NCBI RefSeq assembly: GCF_047555085.1
Contig: NZ_CP180230.1
Coordinates: 210,001-242,000, forward strand
Source of the DNA: Candidatus Saccharimonadota bacterium
GTDB lineage: Archaea > Nanohalarchaeota > Nanosalinia > Nanosalinales > Nanosalinaceae
DNA length: 32,000 nucleotides
Reading direction: 5' to 3'
Shown: piece by piece, positions 1 to 32,000 of the stretch
How positions within the stretch are numbered: position 1 is the first letter of the stretch
How the letters are laid out: each line of letters opens with the position of its first letter
Position numbers and translations under genes: made by a program
The notes under the pieces: model-generated
Told to the model about the DNA's origin: nothing
The model's database searches: none
The model's input: the letters and a program-made list of their open reading frames with translations, nothing else

Positions 1-1665
1 TTCAGCATAGGCCTTGTTGTCATCCGTTACAGGAAGGATACGCACCTGTTCCGGTGCAAGCCATGTCGGGAAGTCTCCTGCAAAGTGTTCGATCATGACT
101 CCCATGAAACGTTCGATAGATCCGAGGATCGCACGATGGATCATGACGGGGTAATGGTCCTCGTTGTCCTCTCCGACGTACTTCAGTCCGTAGTTACGCG
201 GGATGACGAAATCGAGCTGGACTGTACCCAGCTGCCATTCTCTTCCGATCGCATCTTCCACCTCGACACCGATCTTAGGCCCGTAGAACGCTCCTTCTTC
301 CTCGTTAATCACATAGTCATCTACTTTCTCATCTAACGCGTTCTTCAGGGAGCTTTCTGCTTCTTCCCATAATTCATCCGGTCCCTGAGCCTTCTCAGGC
401 TTTGTCTCGAGTATAAAGTTGACATTAAATCCGAACTCATCGTACATCTCGATAATGATCTGGAGATGCTTCTTGATCTCCTCCTCGATCTGATCCTTAC
501 GGATATAGGCGTGGCCATCGTCTTGGGTCATACCTCTAACGCGTAAAAGGCCTGAAAGCTCTCCACTCTGTTCATTCCTGTAAACTGTCCCGAACTCGGA
601 AAGCTTGATAGGCAGCTCTTTGTAACTCCTTTTACCGGAGTCAAATATATGCGAATGGTTCGCACAGTTCATAGGCTTGAGGCCGTACTCTTCATCGTTT
701 TGCTCCCAGGCAAACATCTCGCCTTCCTCCTTGAAGGCCTCGTAGTGCCCCGTTTTCTTCCATAGCTCTGCTTTATTCAGTTCTGGTGTCCAGACTTCCT
801 CGTAGCCGAGTTCTTTATTCTTCTGGCGGATGTATTCCTCGAGCTCTCTTCTCATCTTCATCCCATCTCTGTGGAAATGTGCGGCACCTGGCGAGAAATC
901 AGGGATCGAGAACAGTTCCATCTCCTGTCCGATCCTCCTGTGATCACGCTTTTCAGCCTCTCTGCGCTTCTCCATGAAATCTTCGAGATCTGCCTCGGAG
1001 GAGAAAGCTGTTCCATAAACTCTTGTAAGCATCTCGTTCTCCTCATCGCCTCTCCAGTAGGCGCCAGCGATCTCCAGAAGCTTGAAGGCCTCAACTTCCC
1101 CCGTAGATTCTACGTGAGGGCCTTTACATAAGTCCTTGAACTCTCCCTGCTTGTAAAAGGAAACTTTGTCTCCTTCAGAGGCCTCTTCATCCAGGATCTC
1201 TCGTTTATACTCGTTGTCCTCGAAGAAATCTTCAGCCTCTTCTCGTGGGACTAGTTCACGTTCTATCGGAAGATCTTCTTCGATTATATTCTGCATCTCT
1301 TCCTCGATTTCTTCGAAATCCTCCTGATCCAGATCGACTCCGTCGATATCGTAGTAGAATCCTTCATCAGTCCAAGGTCCGATCGTAAGCTTTACTTCGT
1401 CGCCGTAGATCCTCTTCAAGGCCTGTGCGAATACGTGTGCGGCGCTGTGGCGCAGGACTTCGATGTATTCTTCGCTCTGATCTGTTACTATGTGGACGGT
1501 ATCTCCGTCTGAGACATGTTCCTCTTTGGCTACGAGTTCGCCGTTGATCTTTCCGGCTACTGTATCGTCTCCAAGGCCTGTTCCTATCTCGTAGGCCACA
1601 TCTTCTACTGTCGAGTTTTCTTCTACTTCTAAACTGGAGCCATCTGGTAGTTCTACTTCAATCAT
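1..1665 (-). CDS. thrS: Threonyl-tRNA synthetase, bacterial-type with TGS and editing domains. The C-terminus runs off the window start.
   Basis: I translated the minus strand from the ATG at 1665-1663. The product starts MIEVELPDGS (TGS domain). It carries the editing-domain motifs HSAAHVFAQAL and DLCKGPH, then RDHRRIG and class II core motifs (GLLRVRGMTQDDGH, FYGPKI, MIHRAILGSIERF). The frame stays open to position 1. It is absent from the ORF track because it has no stop in the window. Confidence 0.9.
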   Translation of the reverse strand, partial: MIEVELPDGSSLEVEENSTVEDVAYEIGTGLGDDTVAGKINGELVAKEEHVSDGDTVHIVTDQSEEYIEVLRHSAAHVFAQALKRIYGDEVKLTIGPWTDEGFYYDIDGVDLDQEDFEEIEEEMQNIIEEDLPIERELVPREEAEDFFEDNEYKREILDEEASEGDKVSFYKQGEFKDLCKGPHVESTGEVEAFKLLEIAGAYWRGDEENEMLTRVYGTAFSSEADLEDFMEKRREAEKRDHRRIGQEMELFSIPDFSPGAAHFHRDGMKMRRELEEYIRQKNKELGYEEVWTPELNKAELWKKTGHYEAFKEEGEMFAWEQNDEEYGLKPMNCANHSHIFDSGKRSYKELPIKLSEFGTVYRNEQSGELSGLLRVRGMTQDDGHAYIRKDQIEEEIKKHLQIIIEMYDEFGFNVNFILETKPEKAQGPDELWEEAESSLKNALDEKVDDYVINEEEGAFYGPKIGVEVEDAIGREWQLGTVQLDFVIPRNYGLKYVGEDNEDHYPVMIHRAILGSIERFMGVMIEHFAGDFPTWLAPEQVRILPVTDDNKAYAE

Positions 1666-1802
1666 GAGAGATCTCCTGCAAAGTTTCTAATTTGATAGAA
1701 AAGATTTTGACAGCTAAAGTTAAAGCTGGCTTGGTTGCGAGACATGCGGTCGTGGAGTAGGACGTCCACCTTTCATTGCATCAAAAGTTGAGGCCTCTGC
1801 TC

Positions 1803-1814
1803 TTAATAATTTAT
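1803..1814 (+). promoter_or_regulatory. TATA-box-like element (TTAATAATTTAT) about 24 nt upstream of the trm56 ATG
   Basis: AT-rich box at the archaeal TATA distance from the start codon, consistent with a leaderless transcript. Confidence 0.45.
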
Positions 1815-1831
1815 GCCAGTAAAATCCATGT

Positions 1832-2353
1832 ATGATCAAAGTTCTCCGCCTCGGACACAGAAGAGGCCGCGACGACAGAATATCCACTCACGTAGGCCTC
1901 ACAGCACGCCAATGGGGAGCTGATGAAATAATCTACTCCGGAGAAAAAGACACTAACATACTGGAAAGCCAGAGAGACATCATCGATCGCTGGGGCGGCG
2001 ACATACAAATAAGATACACAGAGGAATGGAAGAAAGAGATCAAGGAATTCGAAGGCCTCAAAGTCCATCTAACGATGTACGGCGAAAAAATCAACGAGAA
2101 AATAGAGGCCCTTGAAGAAAAGTTTGAGGACAGAGATCTACTTGTTATCGTCGGTGCCGAAAAAGTTCCTAGCTGGGTGTACAGAAACGTTGACTACAAT
2201 ATCTCTGTAGGAAACCAGCCTCATTCTGAGATAGCAGCTCTCGCCGTATTCATGGACAGGATACAGGAAGGAGAAATAAAAGAAGATTTCCAGGACGCAG
2301 AAATCCGTGTCAGGCCTTCAGAAGACAGGAAACTGACCGAGGAAACCGGCTAA
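1832..2353 (+). CDS. trm56: tRNA (cytidine56-2'-O)-methyltransferase, SPOUT family, archaeal Trm56
   Basis: The N-terminus MIKVLRLGHRRGRDDRISTHVGLTARQWGADEII matches the conserved aTrm56 signature (LRLGHR..RD.R..THV.L.AR.fGA). The size of 173 aa is typical. Confidence 0.85.
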   Translation: MIKVLRLGHRRGRDDRISTHVGLTARQWGADEIIYSGEKDTNILESQRDIIDRWGGDIQIRYTEEWKKEIKEFEGLKVHLTMYGEKINEKIEALEEKFEDRDLLVIVGAEKVPSWVYRNVDYNISVGNQPHSEIAALAVFMDRIQEGEIKEDFQDAEIRVRPSEDRKLTEETG

Positions 2354-2360
2354 AAATTTT

Positions 2361-2714
2361 TCAGACAGTTTCCCCGAGTTTCTCTCTTACACGTCCTGCA
2401 TAAGCCCTGATCTCGTCGCTGTAACCGAACATCTCAAGATTTCTCAGGTCTTCCTCAAGATCATCAGCATCTTCCAGGCCTTCGCCATCATAGTTTTCAA
2501 GCACGTACTCGGTGAGATGAAGTCCGAACATGTTCAAGGCACTTGTAGTCCTGTCAAAGTTCTCTGAAGCCCTTTCGCTGCCTGCGTTAGGGTCCAGCAG
2601 GTAATCGATCCATCTCTCCGCCTCGTAAAGATCGTCGAACATCGCTCTTTCGTCATCTGTTATGAATCCGTAAAGTTCTTCACCGCCGCGTTCTTCTCGA
2701 GTAAATTCTTCCAT
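2361..2714 (-). CDS. Hypothetical, very acidic cytoplasmic protein (117 aa)
   Basis: ATG-started ORF that fills the gap between trm56 and rnz. Its acidic composition matches the neighbouring genes. I recognise no family. Confidence 0.5.
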   Translation of the reverse strand: MEEFTREERGGEELYGFITDDERAMFDDLYEAERWIDYLLDPNAGSERASENFDRTTSALNMFGLHLTEYVLENYDGEGLEDADDLEEDLRNLEMFGYSDEIRAYAGRVREKLGETV

Positions 2715-2744
2715 GTAGAAACAGTTAAGACCTTAAACTTAACT

Positions 2745-3650
2745 TTATTCCGGTCTGTGAGGCTTAACCTCGAACTCTTTACCATCTTCACCTAGCTCAG
2801 TCTCCCCGAACTTTTCCGAGGCCTCTTCCAGAAGTTTCCGCTCGCTGTTCCTGTATCTACGGGAGAAATGTGTCAGTACAAGCTTCTCGACATCGGCCTC
2901 TTCTGCGATCTCCCCGGCCTGTAGTGCGGATGTGTGTCCGTGTCTTTCTTCAATCATCTCATGCAGACACGTTGATTCATGGATCAGGAGATCAGCGTTC
3001 TCTGCATTATCTATCAGATTGTCGCATTTCTCTGTATCACCGCTGTAAACGATTTTTCTACCCGGCATCTCCTCGATGACTTCTTCAGGCCTGATCTCTT
3101 CGCCTTCCCATTCGATAGTCTCTCCGTTCTTCAGTTTCCCGATCTTTGGCGATGATCCAAGGCCTAAATCCTCCATTTTCTCCTTGTTCGCTTTTTTACT
3201 GGATTCTTCCTCGAAGCTGAAGCCGAAAGCGTTGACTCCATGTTCTACCTCGAAAGGCCTGATTTTGTAGCCGTCGCCGACGATCTCCTCGCCTTCGACA
3301 ATGTCCTCGACAAAGATCTCGTAGCTACGGTTGAAGTATCCGGTGTCAAGAATCCTGTCGGTAAATTCCTCTGTTCTCGGCGGGCCGTAGATGTAAAGCG
3401 GCTCTTCACGGCCTTCAAGCTCCATCGTCTGGATCAGTCCAAGCAGGCCTGAAAAATGATCGGCGTGCCAGTGCGAGATAAAAATCCTGGAAATCTTCAT
3501 GAGGCCCAGTTTCTCCTTCATCAAAGTTCTCTGTGTTCCCTCTCCGCAGTCGAAAAGTATGCGTTCTCCATTGAAATCTATCAGATTGGCGGCGAGGCCT
3601 CTCTCCTCGGTAGGTACTGCGCTTGAAGTTCCCACTGTCCAGACTCTCAT
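2745..3650 (-). CDS. rnz: Ribonuclease Z (tRNA 3' endonuclease), metallo-beta-lactamase fold
   Basis: MRVWTVGTSSAVPTEERG... followed by the HxHxDH motif (SHWHADH) and a C-terminal HESTC / HGHTS region. The track ORF starts at a TTG (3656). The ATG at 3650 gives the canonical RNase Z N-terminus. Confidence 0.9.
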   Translation of the reverse strand: MRVWTVGTSSAVPTEERGLAANLIDFNGERILFDCGEGTQRTLMKEKLGLMKISRIFISHWHADHFSGLLGLIQTMELEGREEPLYIYGPPRTEEFTDRILDTGYFNRSYEIFVEDIVEGEEIVGDGYKIRPFEVEHGVNAFGFSFEEESSKKANKEKMEDLGLGSSPKIGKLKNGETIEWEGEEIRPEEVIEEMPGRKIVYSGDTEKCDNLIDNAENADLLIHESTCLHEMIEERHGHTSALQAGEIAEEADVEKLVLTHFSRRYRNSERKLLEEASEKFGETELGEDGKEFEVKPHRPE

Positions 3651-3724
3651 ATTCAAAACGTTTTGACTGAGTCTTTAATTAGCCTCCCGAAAGGAATAAA
3701 TATTGCTACCTCTATGTAACACTT

Positions 3725-3916
3725 ATGGTTGATGAGGTTTCGTCTCCGAGCAAGGGCTGGCAGGAAGTAAATGCACTGATGCAGAAAGGAGGCCTTTCAG
3801 ATATTGAAGAAGTCATAATGTTTAACAAGGCCCAGTCAGGAGACGCAAGCTACGAAGAGGCCACAGCACAGACACAGCTATCTGATTACCAGGCCTCAGA
3901 GTACACTACACTGTAA
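3725..3916 (+). CDS. Possible small acidic protein (63 aa)
   Basis: The only ORF in the 250-nt gap between rnz and the Trm-G10 gene. An AATAAATATT box lies about 24 nt upstream of its ATG. No family recognised. Confidence 0.3.
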   Translation: MVDEVSSPSKGWQEVNALMQKGGLSDIEEVIMFNKAQSGDASYEEATAQTQLSDYQASEYTTL

Positions 3917-4829
3917 AGATGTACCGTGTCAGATTTTTATGCACATAGACGCTGTAATCTGCCTCGTAGCCGCCTATCGAGGCCTCGTTGTACATAAACA
4001 CTACTTCTCCCTCAAAACTTTCCACGACTTCCAGGAAATCCTCTACAACGTTCGAAGTCTTCTTAGAGGCCTGTCCGTACGGAAGATCAGTTACAATTGC
4101 ATCAAATTTTTCCAGGCCTGAAACTTCACTGATTTCACATCTCTCTATGTCGTAATTGATTATTCCATAATTCTCGAGATTTTCCCCCGCACCTTCGATC
4201 ATCTCCTCGTCGATGTCACGGCCGTGAACTCCAACGCCGCAGAGACCGGCCTCTATCAATATTCCGCCGGTCCCGCAGAAAGGATCAAGCAAATGCTTTC
4301 CAGGCCTGACACCTGAAAGATTCACAAGCACACGTGCCAGGACAGGATCAAGAGAAACAGGCGATGAGAAAGGCCTCCTGTCGTTTTTCCGCTTCATGAA
4401 AAGGCCTCTGTCGATATCCTGTACAAGTTCTGATAGAACAATTTTTTCCTCAAATAGATAGGCCTTGAAAGTTTTCTTCGGATTTTCAAGATCAACAGAA
4501 TTTTTTTCGGATTCAATTTTTCTGCCGAGTTCTTTCTCAATCTTTTTCGTATCTTTTTCCTCTTCTGTAAGATTTTCGGCCCGTACAGCAAAGCTTCCTG
4601 AAAAATCGATGTTTGCATCCAGTTTCTCTGGCTTTGATGCCTCACTGATCTTTCTGGAGACTTCATGCGTCAGGCCGAGACGTTTCAGCTGCATAGGCTC
4701 GGCCTCCGTCTCCGCTAGATTTTTTCTTCTTGAGGCCTTTTCATCTATTTCCTGGCTTTCCAAGAATCCGTTGAGTTCTGCTTCTGCGAGTTCAAGATTT
4801 TCTCCGGCTAGAATGTAGATGTAGCTCAT
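3906..4829 (-). CDS. tRNA (guanine10-N2)-methyltransferase, archaeal Trm-G10/Trm11 type
   Basis: RRPFSSPVSLDPVLARVLVNLSGVRPGKHLLDPFCGTGGILIEAG (SAM motif I) and TDLPYG (motif IV), with a Trm11-like N-terminus MSYIYILAGENLELAEAEL. The track start at 4880 is a TTG. The ATG at 4829 avoids overlap with the upstream gene. Confidence 0.8.
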   Translation of the reverse strand: MSYIYILAGENLELAEAELNGFLESQEIDEKASRRKNLAETEAEPMQLKRLGLTHEVSRKISEASKPEKLDANIDFSGSFAVRAENLTEEEKDTKKIEKELGRKIESEKNSVDLENPKKTFKAYLFEEKIVLSELVQDIDRGLFMKRKNDRRPFSSPVSLDPVLARVLVNLSGVRPGKHLLDPFCGTGGILIEAGLCGVGVHGRDIDEEMIEGAGENLENYGIINYDIERCEISEVSGLEKFDAIVTDLPYGQASKKTSNVVEDFLEVVESFEGEVVFMYNEASIGGYEADYSVYVHKNLTRYIFTV

Positions 4830-4836
4830 TTTTCTA

Positions 4837-5868
4837 TCAGGCCTGTTCTCTGTCTGGTGTGTTGAGTTTAATGAATGCAAGGTATCCGATGATAAGTCCG
4901 GGCCAGTAAGTCGTCAGTCTGAACAGGACTGCTGCGGTAAGCGCTATTGCAAAGTTCAGAGGATAGAAAAGCATCAGTATGCCTGCGAAGGCTGCTTCAA
5001 ATGTGCCTGAGCCGCCGGGAGTCGGTGAGAAAGTTGCAACTCCGGAAAGCATCACGGTGAAGTATATAGCAGGGAAGTTAGGGGTTATAGATAAAGACAG
5101 TAGTATGAAGTACAATGATGCTATCTGCAGAAGGAAAGTTGCATGTGTTAGAGTTGCTGCTTCAAGCAGCATTCTGGGATCGTCTCCGGCCTTGTAGAAT
5201 GCTGCCTTGGTGGATGAAATTCTTTCCTTTATCCTCTGTATGAATTTTTCTCCACGCCCAATCCGGCTCTGTATCCTGTTGAGGATTACGAAAAGGTATT
5301 TCTCAAGTATTTCCTCGTCAAACCATAGAAGATATGCTATCAGGCCTCCAATCAGTGCAAAAATGATTGCAAGATAAGCTGCCTGTGCTACGAGGCCTTT
5401 AACTGACTGGAAGAGGAACATGTAGGCTGCCCCTGCTGTGAGAAAAGTAAGGAAAGGTATGGCATTAATTATATCGGCAGAGATAACGCATGATAGTGAT
5501 TTATCGTAGCTGGCATCTGTGTTACGTGACACGATATATGCCATGAAAGGCTCTCCTCCGAACTGGCCTAGCGGCGTAATAGAGTTCAGGAAGTTCCCTG
5601 CCATAAACATCTCCATAGTTCTCTGGTACTTTAGATCGAAGTCCATGTGCCTGAAGAACATGTGCCAGACGTATCCCCAGATCAGGAATCCGGAGAGGCC
5701 TAGGCCGAGAGCAGGAATGAGATAGTATGGATTGGCGCTTCTCAAGGCCTCTACAAACTTGCTTACATCTGATATGTACACCATGCCTAGAAGGATAATT
5801 AGTGAGATTCCGAACCAGAGGTACTTGTTCTTCTTCAGGGCTGAAAGCTTACTCTTTTTCAGTTCCAT
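4837..5868 (-). CDS. Polytopic membrane protein, UPF0104 / lysyl-phosphatidylglycerol-synthase-TM (flippase-like) family
   Basis: Multiple TM helices. Carries the family-typical core FMAGNFLNSITPLGQFGGEPFMAYIV. This family is commonly linked to glycosyltransferases, as it is here. Confidence 0.65.
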   Translation of the reverse strand: MELKKSKLSALKKNKYLWFGISLIILLGMVYISDVSKFVEALRSANPYYLIPALGLGLSGFLIWGYVWHMFFRHMDFDLKYQRTMEMFMAGNFLNSITPLGQFGGEPFMAYIVSRNTDASYDKSLSCVISADIINAIPFLTFLTAGAAYMFLFQSVKGLVAQAAYLAIIFALIGGLIAYLLWFDEEILEKYLFVILNRIQSRIGRGEKFIQRIKERISSTKAAFYKAGDDPRMLLEAATLTHATFLLQIASLYFILLSLSITPNFPAIYFTVMLSGVATFSPTPGGSGTFEAAFAGILMLFYPLNFAIALTAAVLFRLTTYWPGLIIGYLAFIKLNTPDREQA

Positions 5869-6142
5869 AAACTGTCGTGTCTCCGCATTCCAGGCATCTG
5901 TACAGTATTTTATCTCCCTTCGATTTTATACGTACCTCACAGTTATCTCCAGGCCTGAGAAATGATCCGCAGTTATTGCAGAATTTCCGTTTCAGTCTGG
6001 AGGGAATAGGATTTTCAGACTTCATACTGATCTTCCGGGCCAGTTCAACATATCTGTCCGCAAGTTCTTTTTCATCGGAGTCAAAACGCTTCTCTGCAAG
6101 ATCGAACAGTTTTTCGATCCTCTCCAGAGCAATATTTGTCAT
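5849..6142 (-). CDS. rnp4: RNase P protein component 4 (Rpp21/Rpr2 zinc-ribbon subunit)
   Basis: N-terminal helical region IALERIEKLFDLAEK...ADRYVELARKISMK, then a CNNC...CLEC zinc ribbon. The track start at 6151 is a GTG. The ATG at 6142 lies 5 nt after the GT2 stop. Confidence 0.8.
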   Translation of the reverse strand: MTNIALERIEKLFDLAEKRFDSDEKELADRYVELARKISMKSENPIPSRLKRKFCNNCGSFLRPGDNCEVRIKSKGDKILYRCLECGDTTVYGTEKE

Positions 6143-6147
6143 ACAGT

Positions 6148-6861
6148 TCACCCAACTGTCTCAAAGCTGTATTTATCCTTCATAGCGTCTTTCTTTCCGA
6201 AAAAGTAGTAGATTGATGGAGGAACGTAATCGTTCAGTGTTCCTATAACACCTTTCTCATCGACACGTCTGACAGAGACATAGAACTGATCTTTCAGAGT
6301 TACTATTTTCCCGTGCATGGAGGCCTTCTTCATCAACTCGTGATCCTCGTTGAAAGGTAGAGATGCATCGAACCCATCTACTTCCTCGAAAACTTTTCTC
6401 TCTATGAACAGGAAGTTTCCGACAGCAACACGTCCAAGGCCTGTAAAGTTCATGAACTTCAACATCTTGGAGCCGAGGCCCAATAAAAGTCTTCCTCTGA
6501 TGCTTCCATCGAAGGGAATCCATGAAGAAGTCCCTGCGACAACATCTTCTCTGCTGATCGAGGCCTCTACTCTTGAAAGCACCTTGTCGTCCACGAGCTT
6601 GACATCAGCGTCCAGAAACAGGATGGTATCTCCAGAAGCATGCTCGGCGCCCTCATTTCTTGCTGCACCAGGTCCATCACCTTTATCGCTGAACACTTCT
6701 ACATCGTACTCTTCAAGTATCTCGAGAGTGCCATCGTTGCTTCCGCCATCACATATAATTATTTCATAGTCCTCGAAGTTCTGCGACTTAATGGACTCCA
6801 GAAGAGTTCTGATATAGTCGCTTTCATTGTATGTCGGGACAACTATAGATATCGAAGTCAT
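6148..6861 (-). CDS. Glycosyltransferase family 2
   Basis: SIVVPTYNESDYI...IIICDGGSNDGT...LFLDADV are classic GT-A/GT2 motifs. Confidence 0.85.
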   Translation of the reverse strand: MTSISIVVPTYNESDYIRTLLESIKSQNFEDYEIIICDGGSNDGTLEILEEYDVEVFSDKGDGPGAARNEGAEHASGDTILFLDADVKLVDDKVLSRVEASISREDVVAGTSSWIPFDGSIRGRLLLGLGSKMLKFMNFTGLGRVAVGNFLFIERKVFEEVDGFDASLPFNEDHELMKKASMHGKIVTLKDQFYVSVRRVDEKGVIGTLNDYVPPSIYYFFGKKDAMKDKYSFETVG

Positions 6862-6997
6862 AAAATTGGTTATACCTCTCAGGCCTTTCTATTAGTCCAG
6901 TTCGATTGCAAGATATAAAAAATCAGCTTGGAGAAAATACTAGGCCTGGCTGCGGATATTTAATAAAAATAGATCAGAATATTCTTTTCCGTAAAAA

Positions 6998-7984
6998 ATG
7001 AAGATTTATCATCCTGATTCAATCGAGAGATTTATCGTCGGTGGAGTAAAAGTTTCAGCTCAACAGCAGAGGAAGGCCTTTGAAAAAGTCGGAGTTGAGT
7101 ACACAACAGATTTCACTCTCGACTACGATATCATGCATCTGAATTTTCTCGGGCCTCTGGCTCTGCCCTTGCTGTTTATCTCAAAGCTTCTCGGGAAAAA
7201 AACTGTTGTCCATGCGCATTCCACAGGAGATAATCTTGAGGACACGCTTGCATTCTCCAGTATCTGGGGGCCTATAGGGAAAAAGTACTACCAGTTTATC
7301 TTCAGACACAGCGATCAGGTGATCGCAGTATCAGATTATTCGAAGGAGCTTCTGGAGGAAAGAGAAGTCGGAGATGTAATCACTCTGAGCAACGGCGTTG
7401 ACAACGATGTACTTGATGGATACAACGAAATCGAAGTGCCCGATGAATACTCGGAAGAGGCCTTCAGAGTCGTGAATCTTGCACAGGTATTCGAGCTCAA
7501 AGGCCTTGATACATTTATTGAGGTAGGAGAATCGATGCCTGACGCAGAGTTCACATGGTTCGGTCCAAGACACGAAAAACTGAATCCGAAAGAGACTATA
7601 GAAAAGATCGATGACACTCCTGAGAACGTAAGCTTCCCTGGATTTATCGATGATAAAAGAATACCTTTCAGAATAGGCGATGTCTATCTGTTCCCGTCTC
7701 ATGAAGAAACTCAGGGAATATCTGTTCTTGAGGCGGCCTACTGCGAGATGCCTCTTGTAGTACGTGATATCGAGGCCTTTGAAGGATGGCTGAAGCACAG
7801 GGAGAACTGCTTGAAGGCTGAAACGACAGATGAATTTATAGAACACGTTAAGACTCTTAGAGACGATGAGGAATTGCGGGAAAAAATCGCAGCCAATGCA
7901 CGTGAAATGGCAGAACACCATACGCTGGAGAAAATAGGAGAGAGACTTCAAAAAATGTACAGAGAAGTCCTCAGCAGCGATTAA
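6998..7984 (+). CDS. Glycosyltransferase family 4 (GT-B, group 1)
   Basis: C-terminal group-1 signature FPSHEETQGISVLEAAYCEMPLVVRDI, with GT4-like N-terminal half. Confidence 0.8.
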   Translation: MKIYHPDSIERFIVGGVKVSAQQQRKAFEKVGVEYTTDFTLDYDIMHLNFLGPLALPLLFISKLLGKKTVVHAHSTGDNLEDTLAFSSIWGPIGKKYYQFIFRHSDQVIAVSDYSKELLEEREVGDVITLSNGVDNDVLDGYNEIEVPDEYSEEAFRVVNLAQVFELKGLDTFIEVGESMPDAEFTWFGPRHEKLNPKETIEKIDDTPENVSFPGFIDDKRIPFRIGDVYLFPSHEETQGISVLEAAYCEMPLVVRDIEAFEGWLKHRENCLKAETTDEFIEHVKTLRDDEELREKIAANAREMAEHHTLEKIGERLQKMYREVLSSD

Positions 7985-8027
7985 AAATCCGTCGAGGCCT
8001 GTTTTTCTCTCCTTTTTTCCGGGCCTG

Positions 8028-8037
8028 TTATAAAAAA
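8028..8037 (+). promoter_or_regulatory. TATA box (TTATAAAAAA) about 28 nt upstream of the second GT4 ATG
   Basis: Position and composition fit an archaeal TATA box. The implied leader is very short or absent. Confidence 0.5.
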
Positions 8038-8059
8038 TCTTGATGTATTACTTCTGATT

Positions 8060-20425: not shown

Positions 20426-20433
20426 GATTGATC

Positions 20434-22874: not shown

Positions 22875-22900
22875 CTGTATACAAGGATTGGGTTTCCCGG

Positions 22901-23365: not shown

Positions 23366-23369
23366 ATTT

Positions 23370-24107: not shown

Positions 24108-24167
24108 AGAAAGACAAAGGAATGCATATACTCAAAAAACCTTTACCGTTTCACGGAAAGAAAGGCC

Positions 24168-24178
24168 TAATAAATAAA
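24168..24178 (+). promoter_or_regulatory. TATA-like box (TAATAAATAAA) about 31 nt upstream of the GTG at 24204
   Basis: Supports the GTG at 24204 as the start of the acetyltransferase gene. Confidence 0.4.
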
Positions 24179-24203
24179 CCGGTACCGTGCCAAAAACTTC
24201 GTT

Positions 24204-24683: not shown

Positions 24684-24685
24684 AG

Positions 24686-24727
24686 AGAAAATTTCAAGGC
24701 CTGAAATTTTTTCCAGGCCTTTTTTGG
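24686..24727. terminator. Bidirectional terminator-like spacer: an imperfect palindrome centred on AGGCCT, then a T run, then a second AGGCCT followed by T6
   Basis: gaaaatttcaAGGCCTgaaattttttccAGGCCTtttttt lies between the convergent stops at 24683 (+) and 24729 (-). Confidence 0.4.
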
Positions 24728-24728
24728 G

Positions 24729-25265
24729 TTACTCCCAGTTTCTGTAAGCCAGTATCAGGATGATGATGAAGGCTGTAAGCGCCATCATCGGGATTGTGAT
24801 GTAATCGAAGTAGAATGTGTACTTTGTCTCGCATGACACCTGGCTGATGCTGCATCCGCTGCTCTGGATGCGGCTCATCATCTGGATTGCGTAGTGATAG
24901 ATGCTCAGGCCTGCCCCGATAACTGTCATCGGCACGACATAGTCAGAGACGTTTTTCTCATTGAACAGCAGAGAAGCACCAAGCAGTACTACCAGAGGAT
25001 ACATGAAGATTCTCTGGAACCAGCAGAGTCTGCAAGGAGTCCATCCAAGAACGTTCGACAGGAAGAGGCTGCCCAGAGTAGCTACAGTAGCTACAATCAG
25101 GCCTATCTCTCTGTAACGGGAATCAATTTTTTCCTCGAAGGCCTCAACGTAGTCGTCTATAGGTAAAGTGAAGAATCGCTGCAAGGCCTTTATTCCAAGG
25201 TATCCGATTATCGAGATATCAAGTAGTAGTATAACGTATGCCAGGTACTCAACTAGGAATTCCAT
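24729..25265 (-). CDS. DsbB/BdbC-family disulfide bond formation protein with an extra N-terminal TM segment
   Basis: TPCRLCWFQRIFMYPLV matches the BdbC CxxCWxQRxxMYP motif. A second Cys pair lies in SSGCSISQVSCE. Multiple TM helices. Confidence 0.75.
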   Translation of the reverse strand: MEFLVEYLAYVILLLDISIIGYLGIKALQRFFTLPIDDYVEAFEEKIDSRYREIGLIVATVATLGSLFLSNVLGWTPCRLCWFQRIFMYPLVVLLGASLLFNEKNVSDYVVPMTVIGAGLSIYHYAIQMMSRIQSSGCSISQVSCETKYTFYFDYITIPMMALTAFIIILILAYRNWE

Positions 25266-25314
25266 AGAAGGAAATAATCTGTTGTACAGTTAAAAATTCT
25301 TCTGGCAGGAGGCC

Positions 25315-25665
25315 TTATTTTTTGTCCAGTCTGTACAGATGTGAGTTACAGTTGCAGTCAGATGCCCCGAACTCATCTACAGCGACTCCTTTCTCTGCGG
25401 CACATTCTGCAAGGATACACTCGAATCTTGAAGGGAGAGGGAACGCCAGCCAGTATACAGGATCGGCCTCAAGCGAAAAATAGTCGATATGCCAGTGAAG
25501 CTTCTTGTCACTGGAAAAATGTCTCTCAACTCGTTTCTCTATAGAGTTCATCGCCGAGCCTATGTAGACGTAAAGGCCTGCCTGGAATTTTTTCTCTCCC
25601 AGTGCCCCGATCTCTATAATTTTCTCCTCTTCCAGCTGGAAAAATACGGCGTAAACTCCTTCCAT
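25315..25665 (-). CDS. GIY-YIG (Uri) superfamily protein, DUF123 family
   Basis: GLYVYIGSAMNSIEKRVERHFSSDKKLHWHIDYF and a C-terminal Cys cluster (SDCNCNSHLY), typical of archaeal DUF123. Confidence 0.8.
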   Translation of the reverse strand: MEGVYAVFFQLEEEKIIEIGALGEKKFQAGLYVYIGSAMNSIEKRVERHFSSDKKLHWHIDYFSLEADPVYWLAFPLPSRFECILAECAAEKGVAVDEFGASDCNCNSHLYRLDKK

Positions 25666-25696
25666 GTATTTTTTCGAGGCCTCTGAAATCTTTTAG

Positions 25697-25718
25697 CTGT
25701 TCGCTTTCCATCGAACAG
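25697..25718. promoter_or_regulatory. Inverted repeat CTGTTCG-N8-CGAACAG between divergent promoters; candidate operator
   Basis: A perfect 7-bp inverted repeat. It sits between a TATA-like box for the DUF123 gene (about 25688-25699, minus strand) and AGAATAAAAAAT (25727-25738) upstream of the ArsR-like gene. Confidence 0.35.
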
Positions 25719-25759
25719 TCAAAGTTAGAATAAAAAATCAGCGGGCCTAAAGACTTTAC

Positions 25760-26299
25760 ATGGATCTGGATTTCAAATCTGTAAAGGCCTTGGCGTCCCC
25801 GACACGTCTCGAGATTATCAACGAGGTTCTGGATCAGGAAGCCACTACAACAAAGCTTGCTGACAGGATGGGGAAAAGCAAGTCCACGGTCTCGAATCAT
25901 CTGAAAGTGCTGACAGAATCAGGCCTCCTCGAGAAAGATGAAGAGGAAGGCCGCAGAAGAGTAGTCTACAGGCCTACAGACAAGGCCCGCGCTATAGCGG
26001 AAGGAAAGGAAAGAAAAGTCAAGTTCTCAGTTGTTTCATCCGCTCTTACAGGCATAGTAGGAATCTTTTTGCTTTCCAGATCTTTTCTCCCGGATCAAAG
26101 TTTAACAGGAAGCAGCGGTGACTCCGCCGAGGCAATGGGACAGATGACGATGCAGAGTATGGAACAGGCTCCCAGAGCAGCAGAGGCCTCACAGACAGGT
26201 ACGGTAGAGGCAGCACTGGTGGTTCTTGGAGCAGGCCTGATAGTTACAGCAGTTCTCGCACTGGGCTATGCATACGTCTTGAGACAAATCAGATCATAG
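25760..26299 (+). CDS. ArsR-family winged-helix regulator fused to C-terminal transmembrane segments
   Basis: LASPTRLEIINEVLDQEATTTKLADRMGKSKSTVSNHLKVLTESGLLEK (ArsR HTH). Hydrophobic helices VVSSALTGIVGIFLLS and ALVVLGAGLIVTAVLALGYAYVL. Confidence 0.75.
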   Translation: MDLDFKSVKALASPTRLEIINEVLDQEATTTKLADRMGKSKSTVSNHLKVLTESGLLEKDEEEGRRRVVYRPTDKARAIAEGKERKVKFSVVSSALTGIVGIFLLSRSFLPDQSLTGSSGDSAEAMGQMTMQSMEQAPRAAEASQTGTVEAALVVLGAGLIVTAVLALGYAYVLRQIRS

Positions 26300-26390
26300 A
26301 TAATTTTTTCTGGCGTGAAGGTACTGTACTTAGTTTTCTAGGATTTTCTAAGAAAAAAGAAGAAATTTGGTTGGAGACTTTTTCCCGGCT

Positions 26391-26966
26391 TCAGCTGAAG
26401 AGGGATTGCAGGAGGCCTACGAAGAATCCGAATGAAGGGAAGCCTCCCTTATCATTTTCTTCTTCGCCGTATCCTGGTGTCTCCACTTCCTCAACAGTTT
26501 CTCCGTCTTTAACAACTTCAAGCGTGTACTCTCCTTCTGCCGTGAAACTTCCTTCGATCTTTCTAACACCTACACAGCTGACGCAGGTGCCGTTCCCGGA
26601 TTTCTCAACGAGTTCCATGCTGTAGGAATTATCTGAGACTTCTGAGACTTCTGTTTCAATCGTGGCACATGGATTTGCTGTTGAGATAGCTCCGGAGAAC
26701 TCGACTTTCTGGCCTTCCTCGACGTCTTCGAATTCGCCGAATTCAAGGCCTGTAGACATGTTTCCGGACATACAAGAGCTGTTAAGGTTGCTTATCTCCG
26801 AACGCCATTCGGTTCCGTTCGCATCGACCGACGTCGTGGCCGAAGCTGAGGAGCCTCCTGACATTATCGCCATCTCGCCTTCACCGGGCTCAGGTCCGCC
26901 TACTACTGCAAAAGCTGAACCTGTTACAAGTGAAGCCAGTGCGATCAGTACCAAAAACTTTCTCAT
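26391..26966 (-). CDS. Secreted acidic Cys-containing protein (191 aa) with a hydrophobic C-terminus
   Basis: Signal peptide MRKFLVLIALASLVTGSAFA. Five Cys residues. C-terminal GGFPSFGFFVGLLQSLFS. No family recognised. Confidence 0.65.
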   Translation of the reverse strand: MRKFLVLIALASLVTGSAFAVVGGPEPGEGEMAIMSGGSSASATTSVDANGTEWRSEISNLNSSCMSGNMSTGLEFGEFEDVEEGQKVEFSGAISTANPCATIETEVSEVSDNSYSMELVEKSGNGTCVSCVGVRKIEGSFTAEGEYTLEVVKDGETVEEVETPGYGEEENDKGGFPSFGFFVGLLQSLFS

Positions 26967-26991
26967 AAAACATTCATTCCCTCCACTACCA

Positions 26992-26999
26992 TTTATAAA
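26992..26999 (-). promoter_or_regulatory. Consensus TATA box TTTATAAA about 30 nt upstream of the ATG at 26966
   Basis: Identical octamer and spacing to the promoter of 22191..22874. Confidence 0.55.
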
Positions 27000-27059
27000 C
27001 TACTGAAACTGTTCGAACAACACCGAACACCCTGAAAACAGGGAAAATTTTCTGATACA

Positions 27060-27488
27060 ATGGAAGAAATCAAAGACCTCGGAAAACTGGATGAAGGCGA
27101 CAAAATACTTTTCGATGAGAGAAGCCAGCCACTTGAAATACAGGAAACCGATGAGAAAAAAGTGATAGTTGAAGGCCCGAAAGGCGGACAGTACCAGATA
27201 TTCGACGAGGATGCAAAGCATTTTCTCATATCAAAGCCTGGCGACAGAGAATACGCCAGCTACATAAAAAATCTGCGCAGGATCGGAGAATGGATAGAGA
27301 CAGATGAAGACAGCTACAGGCACACTGATACAGAGGCCTCTCTGGAACTTGTGAAGAATAGTGCTGGATTCTGGACTGTAAAGGCCTCAGGGATACAGAA
27401 TCTTGATCTCCCGAAGTACGGATTCTCCGATAAAGAGGCTGCACGTGAACAGCTCGAGAAAATCCTGGATTCAAATCCTGAAGGCTGA
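27060..27488 (+). CDS. Hypothetical acidic cytoplasmic protein (142 aa)
   Basis: ATG ORF with halophile-like composition that fills the intergenic space. No family recognised. Confidence 0.5.
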   Translation: MEEIKDLGKLDEGDKILFDERSQPLEIQETDEKKVIVEGPKGGQYQIFDEDAKHFLISKPGDREYASYIKNLRRIGEWIETDEDSYRHTDTEASLELVKNSAGFWTVKASGIQNLDLPKYGFSDKEAAREQLEKILDSNPEG

Positions 27489-27566
27489 AAATTTTTCTCA
27501 GAGCATTTTTTCAGAGAATTTTTTATTCAACGAGGCCTCTAAATCCTACAGGGTGACAAAATTTTA

Positions 27567-28298
27567 ATGGAACGCTTCGAGGATAAAACGGTGATCGTCA
27601 CAGGAGGAAGCTCTGGAATCGGAAAAGCTATATCACGGAGATTCGCTGAAGAAGGTGCAGCAGTTACTGTGTTCGATATCTCTGAAGAAGGCGAAGAAAT
27701 CGCAGAGGATATTGGATGCGACTACATTGAATGCGATGTCTCCAGCTGGGAGCAGGTGCAGGAAGCAGTCGATAAAGTGGCGGAAAAACACGGAGGCCTC
27801 GATGTAATGGTGAACAACGCAGGTATAGGCGCCCAGTCAGGAATAGAGGAGATGACGAAAGAAGAATGGGATAAAATTCTTTCCGTAGATCTTGACGGAG
27901 TAATGCACGGCACCAAGGCCTCTGTAGAATACCTGAAGGAGTCAGAAGGAACTATAATCAACATCGCATCTATCTACGGCCTTGTAGGAGATGTAGGAGC
28001 AACAGCATACAACGCAGCGAAAGGAGGAGTTGTCAACTTCACAAGATCAGTAGCAGACGATCTTGCACAGGACAATGTCAGAGTCAACAGCGTATGCCCG
28101 GGATTTGTCAAGACTGCTATGACAGAACAGGCCCTTGAAGACGAAGACTTCAGAAATCACGTTATAGGAGAGACGCCGATGGGAAGAGTCGCCGAGCCGG
28201 AGGAGATTGCAGGTGCAGTAGCTTTCCTGGCCTCGGACGATGCAACGTATATCACAGGTGTAAATCTCCCCGTAGACGGTGGCTGGACAAGCCACTGA
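27567..28298 (+). CDS. Short-chain dehydrogenase/reductase (FabG / glucose 1-dehydrogenase-like)
   Basis: TGGSSGIGKA (TGxxxGxG), NNAG, and the catalytic YNAAK. Confidence 0.9.
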   Translation: MERFEDKTVIVTGGSSGIGKAISRRFAEEGAAVTVFDISEEGEEIAEDIGCDYIECDVSSWEQVQEAVDKVAEKHGGLDVMVNNAGIGAQSGIEEMTKEEWDKILSVDLDGVMHGTKASVEYLKESEGTIINIASIYGLVGDVGATAYNAAKGGVVNFTRSVADDLAQDNVRVNSVCPGFVKTAMTEQALEDEDFRNHVIGETPMGRVAEPEEIAGAVAFLASDDATYITGVNLPVDGGWTSH

Positions 28299-28301
28299 AC
28301 T

Positions 28302-29093
28302 CTATTTTTCATCTTCTTTCTTTTCCTCTGCTACAATCTTCTTGCTGACTGCTTCGTCAAGTATATTCCTCGTTACATTGCTTCTGATTTCTTTAACATT
28401 CTCAGAATCTTTAATCCAGTAGTTAAGGCCTATAATAGCTTTATCGTCTTCAAGGCCTTTCACGACAGTTTCTGGCTCAGGATTATCTATAACTCTCTCG
28501 TGGCTTGAGGCCTGTTTTTTACAGATTTCCTCGAATTTCTCAGCTTTTTTAACAGGTATCTTGAACTCTTTGTCGACTTTTGTTCTCCTGCCTTTGGTAA
28601 AGTTTCTTAGAGGCTGTGTTGTCAGCATGGCGTTCGGTAAGACAACTTTTTCACTTGAAGAGCCGTTGATCACGGTGTGACGCAACTTTATTTCTGTTAC
28701 AACCCCTTCAAATTCTTTTGAACTGATGAAATCGCCTTTGACAAACGGATGATCTGTGAATATGAAGAAGCCAGCTACAACATTTCCGATCTGCTCTCTC
28801 ATCCCGAATCCTACTGCTACAGTAAGAGCAGCTGTTATAGCTCCAAGTACTGTAACGAGATTTCCGAGCTGTGCGCCCTGAAGAGCCACTATGAACGAGA
28901 GGAACAGTCCTGCAAGGCCTGCTATATTCTCGAAAGAATGCATGGAGACTTTATCTGCTCCTTTTCGGGAGGCTGCTCTTCTCGCTGCCGGCATCAGAAT
29001 AAGCCGTGTGAATACAACTCCTGCGACCAGAACTACGAGAAAACGCAGCAACTGAACGTATATTCCTGTCTCCGGCAAAAAATTCTCTAGCAT
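28302..29093 (-). CDS. Small-conductance mechanosensitive channel (MscS family)
   Basis: Three N-terminal TM helices, then GNVVAGFFIFTDHPFVKGDFI...GVVTEIKLRHTVI...VVLPNAMLTTQPLRNFT. Confidence 0.85.
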   Translation of the reverse strand: MLENFLPETGIYVQLLRFLVVLVAGVVFTRLILMPAARRAASRKGADKVSMHSFENIAGLAGLFLSFIVALQGAQLGNLVTVLGAITAALTVAVGFGMREQIGNVVAGFFIFTDHPFVKGDFISSKEFEGVVTEIKLRHTVINGSSSEKVVLPNAMLTTQPLRNFTKGRRTKVDKEFKIPVKKAEKFEEICKKQASSHERVIDNPEPETVVKGLEDDKAIIGLNYWIKDSENVKEIRSNVTRNILDEAVSKKIVAEEKKEDEK

Positions 29094-29291
29094 ACAAATT
29101 CAAGGCCTCTATATCTTCAAAAAACTTCTTGATCCGAGAGTTCCTCTTCAGAAAAATCTGGAGAAATTTTTCGTGATGGAATTTATGATGAAAAATTTGC
29201 GGCTTCAGGGATTGAAGTTCTGAAAGTTTCATCATCAGAATGCATGGTACCGGATGAACCATGTCTTGCGTCCCAATTCAGCGTAACGAAT

Positions 29292-30418: not shown

Positions 30419-31327
30419 TTATCCGCCACCTGTCAACTTCAGATAAGTTGTCTCCAGAGTTTCCTCCTCCATCTCGAAAGCTTCAACATCAATATCTTCC
30501 TCCATCAATCGATCGAAGAGCTTACTTCGGATATCATCCTCCGCCAGGATCTCCAATTCTTTCTTCCCGGCCTCGTACTCCACGTCCATCTCATCAAGAA
30601 TTTTCTCCGAGGCCTCCCGATCTTCAGTCTTCAAACGGATATAGGAGTCTGTATCTGTCTCACTGCTCAACTCGTGTCTCGTCCCACAGGCCTCGACTTT
30701 TCCGTCACTGAGAATGGCAAATCTGTCGCATAAAGTATCAATTTCGGTGGTGATATGAGATGAAATTATGATGGTCTTGCCACGTTCTCTGTTAATCTTC
30801 TTCACCAGATCCTTGAAGGCCTTTTTTCCCTGTGGATCAAGGCCTGTAGTCGGCTCATCGTAGATGATGATCTCCGGATCCTTGATCATCGACTGTGCGA
30901 TCCCCAGACGCTTCTTCATCCCTGTGGAAAAATCTCCTACAGATCTATCCGCATCGTCCTCAAGGCCTACAAGATCGAGAAGATCATCCAGATCAGGATC
31001 CGTCCCGGCAAGCTCTGTAAAGAACTCAAGATTCTCCCGCGCACTCATCCCCTCGTAGAAGCTTATATCAGAGGGAAGATAGCCGATCTTCTCCTTTATC
31101 TCCTTCGACTGCGTATGCTCAGTCCCTTTGATCTTCACAGTGCCACTATCCTGCCTTAAAAGGCCTAGAACAGTCTGGAAAAGAGTAGTCTTCCCAACAC
31201 CGTTAGGCCCCAAGATGCCGAAGATCTCTCCTTCCTCTACAGAAAAATCTATACCTTTCAGTACTTCAAAATCTCCGTAGCTTTTCTCAACGCCTTCCAG
31301 TTCGATTATATCTGTCAAAAAATTCAC
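30419..31327 (-). CDS. ABC transporter ATP-binding protein (ABC-2/CcmA-like)
   Basis: Walker A GPNGVGKTT, signature FSTGMKKRLGIAQ, Walker B IIIYDEPTTGLD, and H-loop SSHI. The GTG start overlaps the upstream stop (GTGA). Confidence 0.9.
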   Translation of the reverse strand: MNFLTDIIELEGVEKSYGDFEVLKGIDFSVEEGEIFGILGPNGVGKTTLFQTVLGLLRQDSGTVKIKGTEHTQSKEIKEKIGYLPSDISFYEGMSARENLEFFTELAGTDPDLDDLLDLVGLEDDADRSVGDFSTGMKKRLGIAQSMIKDPEIIIYDEPTTGLDPQGKKAFKDLVKKINRERGKTIIISSHITTEIDTLCDRFAILSDGKVEACGTRHELSSETDTDSYIRLKTEDREASEKILDEMDVEYEAGKKELEILAEDDIRSKLFDRLMEEDIDVEAFEMEEETLETTYLKLTGGG

Positions 31328-32000
31328 CTTCTGCTGAACTTCCTGTAGACGAATATCAATGCTGCAAGACTCAAAGCCATCAAAACAAGGCCTACACTGC
31401 TCATCCCGCTCTCCTCTCTCACATTGATCCTTATCTCGGAAGGACTCTCTATAGAGGCCTTGTCTGAAGATGCAGAAATCTCTACAAAGTAGTCTCCTGG
31501 CGAGGCCTCAGCAGGTACGTCCAGAGTCAGCATGGATCTCTGACGCTCTCTTGTATCCAGCTCGCTGAATCCTTCAGGATTTAAATCGTATTCCCAGCTA
31601 TCCGGCGCAGTCACCTCTATCTCAACGTTTTCAAGGGCTGCACCGGTGCTATCATCCCTGTATCCGAATCCGGCGCTGTTCCTGACTGTTATAGGAATCT
31701 CCTTTGTCTCATCAGGATTTGACGCCATATAATTTTCTCTTATATTCAGAGACATCTCTCTTTCAACTTCTGCACCACGTATCTCCATCTGGAACTCTTC
31801 TGAAAGCTTTTCTCCGTTCTGAGCGATCAAACGGACTTTGTATGTTCCCAACTCTGCGTTTTCAGGGACTTCAAGATTTGCAGTAACGGATTCCTCTTCA
31901 CCTGCCTCCACGTAGACCTCTGTAACGTTGAAATCCTGAAAACTGAAGGAGGCCTCTACAGAGGCGTTAGTATCCACGGAAAGATTATAGGTTTGATTCA
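31324..32000 (-). CDS. Surface protein with NEW3/CARDB-like beta-sandwich repeats and a C-terminal TM anchor (COG1470-like). The N-terminus lies beyond the window.
   Basis: The frame stays open to position 32000 upstream of the GTG reported in the track. Contains VTANLEVPENAELGTYKVRLIAQNG and LTLDVPAEASPGDYFVEISA, typical of NEW3 domains. Anchor SVGLVLMALSLAALIFVYRKFSRR. Confidence 0.7.
   Translation of the reverse strand, partial: NQTYNLSVDTNASVEASFSFQDFNVTEVYVEAGEEESVTANLEVPENAELGTYKVRLIAQNGEKLSEEFQMEIRGAEVEREMSLNIRENYMASNPDETKEIPITVRNSAGFGYRDDSTGAALENVEIEVTAPDSWEYDLNPEGFSELDTRERQRSMLTLDVPAEASPGDYFVEISASSDKASIESPSEIRINVREESGMSSVGLVLMALSLAALIFVYRKFSRR

Follow-up and report, generated by a model that had tools for sequence, protein, structure and literature searches.

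AGGCCT as a HIP-like palindrome near saturation in nanohaloarchaeal DNA

The AGGCCT field of the window

The stretch of DNA considered here (the window, 32,000 bp in full) comes from Candidatus Nanosalina sp. VS9-1, a salt-loving symbiotic archaeon of the class Nanohaloarchaea within the DPANN group. Its gene content is archaeal, including aTrm56, DUF2070 and CARDB surface proteins, and its tRNase Z gene is 75-83% identical to those of metagenome-assembled genomes of Nanohaloarchaea. Scattered over genes and spacers is a single DNA word, the palindromic hexamer AGGCCT, which an exact scan counts 158 times, against a zero-order expectation of 6.6 copies at the 46.1% GC of the window. An earlier note on this DNA had put the count at about 158 and the expectation at about 6-8, and both figures stand; its 'halophilic archaeon' can be named more exactly as the DPANN nanohaloarchaeon given above. 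The field of copies and its longest interruption are as follows.

1..32000, palindromic and alike on both strands: AGGCCT field, 158 dispersed copies at a mean spacing of 203 bp (exact scan)
AGGCCT starts (1): 9, 548, 735, 1086, 1179, 1419, 1574, 1791, 1894, 2053, 2312, 2476, 2819, 3087, 3160, 3255, 3445, 3595, 3790, 3891, 3980, 4067, 4114, 4302, 4371, 4402, 4460, 4733, 4839
AGGCCT starts (2): 5342, 5393, 5696, 5745, 5951, 6321, 6437, 6561, 6881, 6942, 7074, 7458, 7501, 7773, 7995, 8124, 8338, 8443, 8528, 8579, 8621, 8860, 9003, 9173, 9313, 9433, 9605, 9786, 9824
AGGCCT starts (3): 10006, 10036, 10303, 10353, 10594, 11091, 11406, 11764, 11808, 11820, 12010, 12802, 13017, 13272, 13452, 13710, 13736, 14594, 14703, 14758, 15883, 16407, 16601, 16796, 17419, 17521, 17725, 17798, 18080, 18228, 18304, 18405, 18549, 18655, 18691, 19259, 19366, 19784, 19996
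AGGCCT starts (4): 20064, 20254, 20467, 20772, 20856, 20899, 21268, 21525, 21653, 22122, 22967, 23119, 23245, 23588, 23933, 24163, 24268, 24332, 24392, 24697, 24715, 24907, 25099, 25139, 25184, 25310, 25574, 25677, 25785, 25921, 25970
AGGCCT starts (5): 26184, 26233, 26413, 26746, 27334, 27382, 27533, 27794, 27916, 28426, 28453, 28508, 28915, 29103, 29535, 29687, 29838, 29997, 30048, 30195, 30610, 30688, 30817, 30840, 30963, 31161, 31388, 31455, 31503, 31950
Within 1791..29108: the 15 copies that do not lie wholly within a called gene (starts 1791, 3790, 3891, 6881, 6942, 7995, 22122, 22967, 24163, 24697, 24715, 25310, 25677, 27533, 29103)
14764..15882: longest AGGCCT-free stretch (gap 1125 bp), lying within the gene 14216-15895 (from the list of spacings)

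The excess amounts to 21-24-fold in the window (158 copies against 6.6-7.6 under base-composition and dinucleotide models) and to 18-fold over the pooled motif-rich loci introduced below. AGGCCT is the most frequent hexamer of the window by a factor of 2, and the next-ranked hexamers are its own overlaps. Markov models, a check which the earlier note had asked for, fall short of the count at orders 1, 2 and 3 (7.6, 25.7 and 71.5 copies, the last with a simulated standard deviation of ~7), and the near match of order 4 (155 copies) is trivial because the constituent pentamers occur almost solely inside the hexamer. As had also been described from the letters alone, about two thirds of the GGCC tetramers carry both the A and the T flank (158 of 238, 66%), and most of the others, 68 of 80, are one mismatch away from AGGCCT. 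Beyond the hexamer the flanks are nearly uninformative, apart from a scarcity of T at position -1 and of A at position +6 that mostly reflects the stop codon TAG; the unit is therefore the hexamer, and a longer consensus was rejected on the same evidence.

Coding sequence holds 143 of the copies, distributed over all three codon phases (24 as AGG-CCT, 60 as xAG-GCC-Txx and 59 as xxA-GGC-CTx) and equally dense in genes of either orientation, with 57 copies in 12.1 kb (4.7 per kb) on the plus strand and 86 in 17.9 kb (4.8 per kb) on the minus strand. Spacers, with 15 copies in 2.1 kb, are denser than coding sequence (7.2 against 4.8 per kb), the reverse of what a coding artefact predicts. When synonymous codons are shuffled gene by gene, 21.7±4.3 copies remain (maximum 33), and a shuffle that preserves protein, codon usage and dinucleotides leaves 62.9±4.8 (maximum 79), against the 143 observed. 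The earlier note had reported the motif in every phase, in both orientations and in spacers, had concluded that selection on proteins cannot explain it, and had named codon shuffling as a test that could overturn this conclusion; neither shuffle reaches the observed number, and the spread over phases and the saturation described next agree with its conclusion.

Saturation, interference and sporadic distribution

We call a position compatible when the amino-acid sequence permits AGGCCT by synonymous codons; the contexts are Arg-Pro, Glu, Lys or Gln followed by Ala and a residue that has a codon starting with T, and a residue that has a codon ending in A followed by Gly-Leu. In the window 143 of 177 compatible coding positions are realised (81%), and AGG-CCT encodes 24 of the 27 Arg-Pro pairs. 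The realised fraction is high throughout all genes, and even the gene with the longest gap realises four of its seven compatible positions; there is therefore no sign of a foreign, unameliorated island, and foreign islands in the window were rejected. The relatives of the window, contigs to which we give L numbers, range widely in the density of the motif.

Motif-rich, 3.5-5 AGGCCT per kb: the window, L001, L002, L003, L004, L006, L010, L222
Intermediate, 0.9-2 per kb: L008, L015, L017
Motif-poor, at most 0.5 per kb: the other nanohaloarchaeal relatives, including Nanosalina J07AB43 (17 make up the poor set)
Haloarchaeal, 65-70% GC, ~0.1 per kb: L202-L214

The realised fraction follows the same gradation, at 73-81% in six other motif-rich loci, 31-53% in the three intermediate loci and 5-8.5% in the 17 motif-poor relatives; L222, an independent motif-rich contig, realises 77%. 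The number of compatible positions itself is shifted, with 17.1 per 1000 amino acids in motif-rich against 11.1 in motif-poor genomes, and the Arg-Pro dipeptide has an observed/expected ratio (O/E) of 2.12 in the former and 0.89 in the latter. In comparison with motif-poor relatives the amino acids under AGG-CCT are conserved in 27% of cases against a background of 42%, and those under xAG-GCC-Txx in 14% against 31%; these two phases account for 84 of the 143 copies in coding sequence. In both, the residues at motif sites are thus less conserved than their surroundings, and the force must therefore also fix amino-acid changes: proteins are bent toward AGGCCT, and the dipeptide content of the proteome is remodelled. 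At synonymous positions the ratio of motif to non-motif is ~4:1 in motif-rich and ~1:15 in motif-poor genomes, a bias of ~30-60-fold that would correspond to a scaled advantage S of ~3.5-4 per site, with which the density in spacers is concordant. The force acts on double-stranded DNA, not on proteins or codons, and drives every position toward AGGCCT.

AGGCCT sites suppress each other within ~30 bp. When the seven motif-rich sequences are pooled, gaps shorter than 30 bp number 9 where 59 are expected, and gaps of 150-300 bp number 183 where 120 are expected. Of 49 compatible positions 6-30 bp away from a realised site, 14 (29%) carry the motif, against 449 of 563 (80%) beyond 30 bp (Fisher p = 4e-13), and the window taken alone gives 8 of 18 near and 135 of 159 beyond (p = 0.0003). 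The effect ends sharply, 81-88% of the compatible positions at 30-60 bp from a site being realised. Pair distances carry a hint of peaks near 50 and 150 bp, on which, given the small sample, no reliance is placed. Among the few pairs of sites less than 30 bp apart is the following.

24696..24721: inverted AGGCCT pair lying between convergent genes; the two copies, 18 bp apart, build an inverted repeat of 11 pairs (AAGGCCTG...CAGGCCTT), and T runs accompany it

This pair is the top terminator-like match in a scan of positions 20000-32000, although the plus-strand RNA fold is unexceptional (z = -1.3); from its sequence it looks like a candidate bidirectional terminator.

The trait is present in eight independent assemblies from different studies, and it is sporadic among the Nanohaloarchaea. 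In a neighbour-joining tree, the backbone of which is weak, the motif-rich L006 is sister to the motif-poor L043 (bootstrap 94) inside a motif-poor clade. Nevertheless 11 of 18 aligned L006 sites are shared with the more distant window, and only 1 of 26 with the sister L043; shared sites therefore track phenotype, not ancestry. The sites of the window are exact AGGCCT in rich relatives in 48% of cases overall (39-60%), against 11-12% for other hexamers; where the amino acids are conserved, motif hexamers are kept at 61-94% against 24% for others, and in the comparison with the closest relative, L222 (76.8% nucleotide identity), at 71-82% against 24%. These values equal the realised fraction, and the rule is therefore 'wherever possible' rather than the retention of particular sites; saturation alone accounts for the level of site conservation. 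Alignments of orthologous positions show that sites arise by substitution, without insertions or deletions, and that motif-poor relatives carry there variants of every sort, one or several letters off, among which AGGTCT does not predominate. Between these genomes synonymous sites are themselves saturated (identity ~0.48). An effect of repair tracts on nearby divergence was rejected, synonymous identity being flat with distance from the site at this level of saturation.

The haloarchaeal contigs contain 12 copies in ~125 kb, ~50-fold below the symbiont. In the comparison of densities in relatives and hosts that the earlier note had proposed, the relatives of the window are rich at 3.5-5 copies per kb but only sporadically so, and haloarchaeal contigs stand at ~0.1 per kb. 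As to viruses, among the matches listed in viral contigs the dense ones (L188, L181 and L177) are tandem-repeat arrays and not the dispersed motif; these IMG/VR contigs have periods of ~73, 63 and 54 bp, respectively, in units holding AGGCCT, and the unit of L188 contains AGGCCTAGGCCT. The viral arrays are unrelated to the dispersed motif.

Some relatives are noteworthy for other reasons. L008 (CP046106, the complete genome of strain M3_22) realises about half of its compatible positions, an intermediate phenotype, and AGGCC is common there with any 3' base (AGGCCT 41, AGGCCG 27, AGGCCC 21, AGGCCA 20); the trait may be under gain or loss in this strain, or its specificity relaxed. The motif-poor L014 (JACOQA01), L037 and L020 strongly avoid GGCC, with 9 copies in 20.9 kb at 44% GC and 0 in 6.7 kb, which suggests GGCC-specific restriction pressure in the same habitat. 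In the window itself, the PHP-domain protein encoded at 23370-24107 on the minus strand has its closest metagenomic relatives (51-56% identical) on the haloarchaeal contigs of 65-70% GC, L202-L214, bar one short nanohaloarchaeal contig (81%), a pattern of sequence similarity that suggests transfer of the gene between host and symbiont lineages. Large proteins (538-1128 amino acids), secreted or on the surface and with CARDB, DUF2341, NosD-like and NPCBM-associated domains, are encoded together at 10736-22050 in a cluster that is syntenic in relatives; its products are plausible candidates for host-interaction factors of the symbiont.

The GGTC/GACC footprint and the force behind the motif

A second process acts on tetramers: it removes GGTC/GACC, which arises from GGCC when the inner C changes to T. 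Once the motif is masked, no tetramer is more depleted in rich relative to poor genomes than GGTC/GACC, with an order-1 O/E of 0.26 in the window, a median of 0.67 in rich and of 0.94 in poor genomes (p = 0.0003), and a span of 0.14-0.80 among the rich ones (0.14 in L222). The five other one-off variants of GGCC show no depletion in rich relative to poor genomes, three of them being equal and GGGC/GCCC and GGCG/CGCC slightly higher. Codon shuffling with the motif sites held fixed gives the same picture: the window has 46 GGTC/GACC against 126±8.6, the other rich loci have an O/E of 0.83 and the poor ones of 1.01, while GGCC outside the motif is raised 1.55-fold in the window and 1.22-fold in the other rich loci. 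The loss is equal in all eight flank classes, and the sense strand retains 24 GGTC and 22 GACC. Comparison of rich genomes with one another yields, among the one-off variants of the motif, C5-to-T ~20 times and C4-to-T ~5 times. By analogy, such a footprint would be expected if the inner C of GGCC were 5-methylcytosine (m5C) and short-patch repair turned T:G into C:G. Other words also depart from expectation. The outer transition variant GGGCCT/AGGCCC is ~3-fold enriched in motif-rich over motif-poor genomes, TGGCCT/AGGCCA is not, and GGGCCC is depleted; a number of other palindromes are 3-9-fold depleted in the pooled window, L001-L004, L006 and L010 (CTTAAG, with 5 copies against 44 expected, TCGCGA, CAATTG, TGCGCA, GGGCCC, GCTAGC and TCTAGA), and the scarcity of CTTAAG and the others looks like restriction avoidance.

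Could such repair alone have written the motif? The earlier note had raised very-short-patch repair as a cause; inner-C methylation followed by T:G to C:G correction would turn AGGTCT into AGGCCT, and the confinement of GGTC/GACC loss to motif-rich genomes is the part of that idea which survives. As the sole cause it is effectively refuted, and we give it very little credence: in a 4096-state Markov chain even infinitely efficient T:G correction enriches AGGCCT or GGCC at most 3.6-3.9-fold, against the 20-fold observed, the orthologous positions of poor relatives are not mainly AGGTCT, the loss of GGTC is independent of flanks, and non-motif GGCC is up just 1.2-1.55-fold. This bound and the variety of orthologous neighbours therefore require a hexamer-specific force that acts from any neighbour. 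A word read at the RNA level, AGGCCU, which is alike from either strand and might serve as a signal for mRNA processing, modification or ribosome pausing, seems to us equally improbable. Independence of strand and phase is compatible with it, and the ~30 nt exclusion zone is near the size of a ribosome footprint, but nothing would require such a word to be palindromic in DNA, the symmetric loss of GGTC and GACC on the sense strand points to double-stranded DNA, and for HIP1, the cyanobacterial highly iterated palindrome, Xu et al. found no role at the RNA level (PMC5861425). An artefact of codon usage, amino-acid usage, assembly or a dispersed family of repeats, whether miniature mobile elements or extragenic repeats, can call only on the fact that most copies lie in genes; it is refuted, and left with next to no probability, by the codon shuffles, the nearly uninformative flanks, the orthologous alignments in which sites arise without indels and the recurrence of the trait in eight assemblies.

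Two further explanations, both raised in the earlier note, deserve more weight, although we regard each of them as unlikely. AGGCCT could be bound by an abundant dimeric protein with a role in the nucleoid, chromatin or segregation; each occupied site would bring a slight gain in fitness, and weak selection in a very large population would fill all permitted positions. Palindromes are only 64 of the 4096 hexamers and imply that a symmetric protein recognises double-stranded DNA, the exclusion zone, sharp at ~30 bp, has the size of a protein footprint, and selection and a role in chromosome structure have been argued for HIP1 (Xu et al.; PMC5861425). Individual sites appear to lack importance, however, since conservation equals the realised fraction once the amino-acid context is compatible; moreover, the loss of GGTC stays unexplained, each sporadic gain would need a new protein, and the motif-rich loci have no candidate gene of their own. 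Comparably unlikely is a self-DNA watermark or a tag for DNA uptake or recombination, in which a receptor or a methylation-dependent step favours tagged DNA and thereby raises the density of the tag, much as with the uptake sequences of Haemophilus and Neisseria and as lately suggested for HIP1. Such a drive would work from any neighbouring sequence, alter proteins and be specific to lineages, all of which is observed; the ~5 copies per kb of the symbiont stand against 12 in ~125 kb of haloarchaeal DNA, a 50-fold contrast, and the inverted pair of copies makes a terminator-like hairpin, as uptake sequences do. The difficulties are that interference reaches only ~30 bp, whereas a benefit at the level of fragments should saturate long before 5 sites per kb, that a hexamer discriminates weakly, and that flank-independent loss of GGTC is not predicted. 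A particular form of this idea, to which we assign somewhat less probability still, is a methylation-dependent watermark separating symbiont DNA (~5 per kb) from that of the haloarchaeal host (~0.1 per kb): the mark would decide which DNA is recombined or protected and which is degraded for nucleotides, and the same machinery would write the motif at every permitted position.

The best reading of the data, in our judgement, is that AGGCCT is a palindrome of the highly iterated (HIP) type and a target of methylation, with either a directional ratchet of short-patch repair or weak selection holding it at saturation. Elhai has described sporadic alternate HIPs in cyanobacteria, GGCGCC among them, each alongside a cognate methyltransferase, and has proposed a ratchet of methylation-directed mismatch repair (PMC4390886). 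We lean, if tentatively, towards a ratchet of methylation-linked short-patch repair, in which the length of the repair tract would set the 30-bp range of interference. The hexamer or its GGCC core would be the target of a putative cytosine methyltransferase modifying the inner C, T:G mismatches at this base would be restored to C:G by Vsr- or Mig-like short-patch repair, and the methylation mark would tilt the short-patch repair of near-cognate mismatches toward the strand that carries or newly creates the complete site, as in Elhai's ratchet. With repair tracts of ~30 nt a new site would be unable to fix beside an existing one, and the ceiling on density would lie far above the ~1 per kb of cyanobacterial HIPs. 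The determinant would probably be a mobile module that joins a methyltransferase to repair, and the patchy distribution would follow from this.

Several points weigh against this ratchet. In regular-expression and Pfam scans neither the window nor ~140 kb of motif-rich relatives showed a gene for a DNA methyltransferase, Vsr, Mig or MutS/L, and DPANN archaea may be without MutS/MutL altogether. The loss of GGTC is independent of flanks while the enrichment is hexamer-specific, and one enzyme specificity therefore fails to explain both; likewise the loss varies from 0.14 to 0.80 among rich genomes and motif density barely does, which argues that T:G repair is not the driver. Elhai's ratchet has never been demonstrated in any organism, and weak selection on a per-site function would lead to the same equilibrium pattern. 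Finally, the single characterised AGGCCT methyltransferase that turned up in the literature, that of Alcanivorax, modifies the outer and not the inner C (PMC12128166).

The search for an enzyme has otherwise produced leads that did not hold. A search for homologues of M.HaeIII returned, among the best 120 matches listed, only close bacterial relatives, and an N6/N4-like open reading frame of L017 was rejected as a DNA methyltransferase, being an orthologue of a tRNA m2G methyltransferase. One gene of the window came into question as a nicking enzyme.

25315..25665, minus strand: DUF123 / GIY-YIG nuclease-family gene (Pfam PF01986), its protein 100% identical to WP_414838029.1 of Ca. Nanosalina sp. 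VS9-1

This gene is conserved from Thermococcus to Nanohaloarchaea, and it was rejected: close homologues lie on motif-rich (L222) and motif-poor (L218-L221, L225) contigs alike, and it is therefore not the determinant. The nanohaloarchaeon SVXNc encodes two Dcm-like methyltransferases, with only one motif detected by single-molecule real-time (SMRT) sequencing (PMC11001535). That methylome is the sole nanohaloarchaeal one; the motif is GDGcHC, and the second Dcm-like enzyme is without an assigned motif (PMC11001535, PMC10266531).

Significance and comparison with known systems

Among the papers of the library searched, none joins AGGCCT with nanohaloarchaea, and the HIP-like AGGCCT of DPANN archaea is real, extreme and, so far as we can see, undescribed. 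Highly iterated palindromes have been a cyanobacterial puzzle for thirty years, with selection, biased repair and DNA uptake as the contending causes, and AGGCCT provides an independent and more extreme case in another domain of life. It also offers handles that HIP1 has not, namely saturation of ~80%, an S of ~3.5-4, a sharp range of ~30 bp, a linked T:G footprint and rich and poor sister lineages; with genomes of ~1 Mb, such sisters make a gene-presence screen for the determinant straightforward. For the Nanohaloarchaea themselves, codon choice and even dipeptides are partly dictated by a DNA word, which affects analyses of codon usage, selection and phylogeny, and motif density is a strong feature for binning and for the separation of host from symbiont. 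Were the watermark true, it would be the first archaeal counterpart of the uptake and watermark role suggested for HIP1, and a system of self/non-self recognition specific to an intimate symbiosis.

The nearest likeness is with the cyanobacterial HIPs, HIP1 (GCGATCGC) and its alternates (GGCGCC in Calothrix PCC 7103, CAGGCCTG in Synechococcus PCC 6312). The conservation of HIP1 has been reported by Xu et al., who also give CAGGCCTG at 0.37 per kb (O/E 14.7) in Synechococcus PCC 6312 without a test for a methyltransferase (PMC5861425), and a 2026 preprint ties HIP1 to methylation-dependent transformation (10.64898/2026.06.24.733823). Like AGGCCT, these are short GC-rich palindromes, at least 15-fold enriched, which occur in all frames and in spacers, spread by substitution and not by insertion and are conserved between genomes above control motifs, the alternates being sporadic; CAGGCCTG itself contains AGGCCT (PMC4390886, PMC5861425). 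The earlier note had likened the motif to HIP1 and called it denser, rightly so, given 4.9 per kb in the window against 0.2-2.5 per kb for HIPs (PMC4390886, PMC5861425). The differences are that AGGCCT belongs to DPANN archaea, that it is a hexamer at 3.5-5 rather than 0.2-2.5 per kb, that it is near-saturated, remodels dipeptides and shows interference over ~30 bp, and that its cognate methyltransferase is putative. Since its source is nanohaloarchaeal, we class it as a HIP-like variant outside the cyanobacterial family.

The very-short-patch systems, Dcm/Vsr of E. coli and the GGCC methyltransferase M.MthTI with the T/G glycosylase Mig.Mth of Methanothermobacter, resemble what is seen in the motif-rich genomes, and in these only, in that the GGTC product is lost and the GGCC core mildly raised. 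They differ in shifting words a few-fold at most, with neither a 20-fold enrichment nor a conversion of other neighbours. DNA uptake sequences, the uptake signal sequences (USS) of Pasteurellaceae/Haemophilus and the DNA uptake sequences (DUS) of Neisseriaceae, are likewise words in genome-wide excess that lie in genes in all frames and constrain proteins, come in lineage-specific dialects, are spaced more evenly than chance and pair up in terminators; theirs, however, are non-palindromic words of 9-12 nt at ~1 per kb, whereas AGGCCT is a palindromic 6-mer at ~5 per kb with an interference of ~30 bp, not on the scale of DNA fragments. The StuI-type restriction-modification system of Alcanivorax borkumensis, lastly, shares the very site, and nearly all of its 1674 genomic sites are methylated (PMC12128166). 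Targets of this kind are normally avoided or neutral (~0.5 per kb in Alcanivorax), unlike the 20-fold enriched and saturated AGGCCT of the window, and it is the outer C that is methylated in Alcanivorax, whereas the footprint in the motif-rich Nanohaloarchaea points to the inner one.

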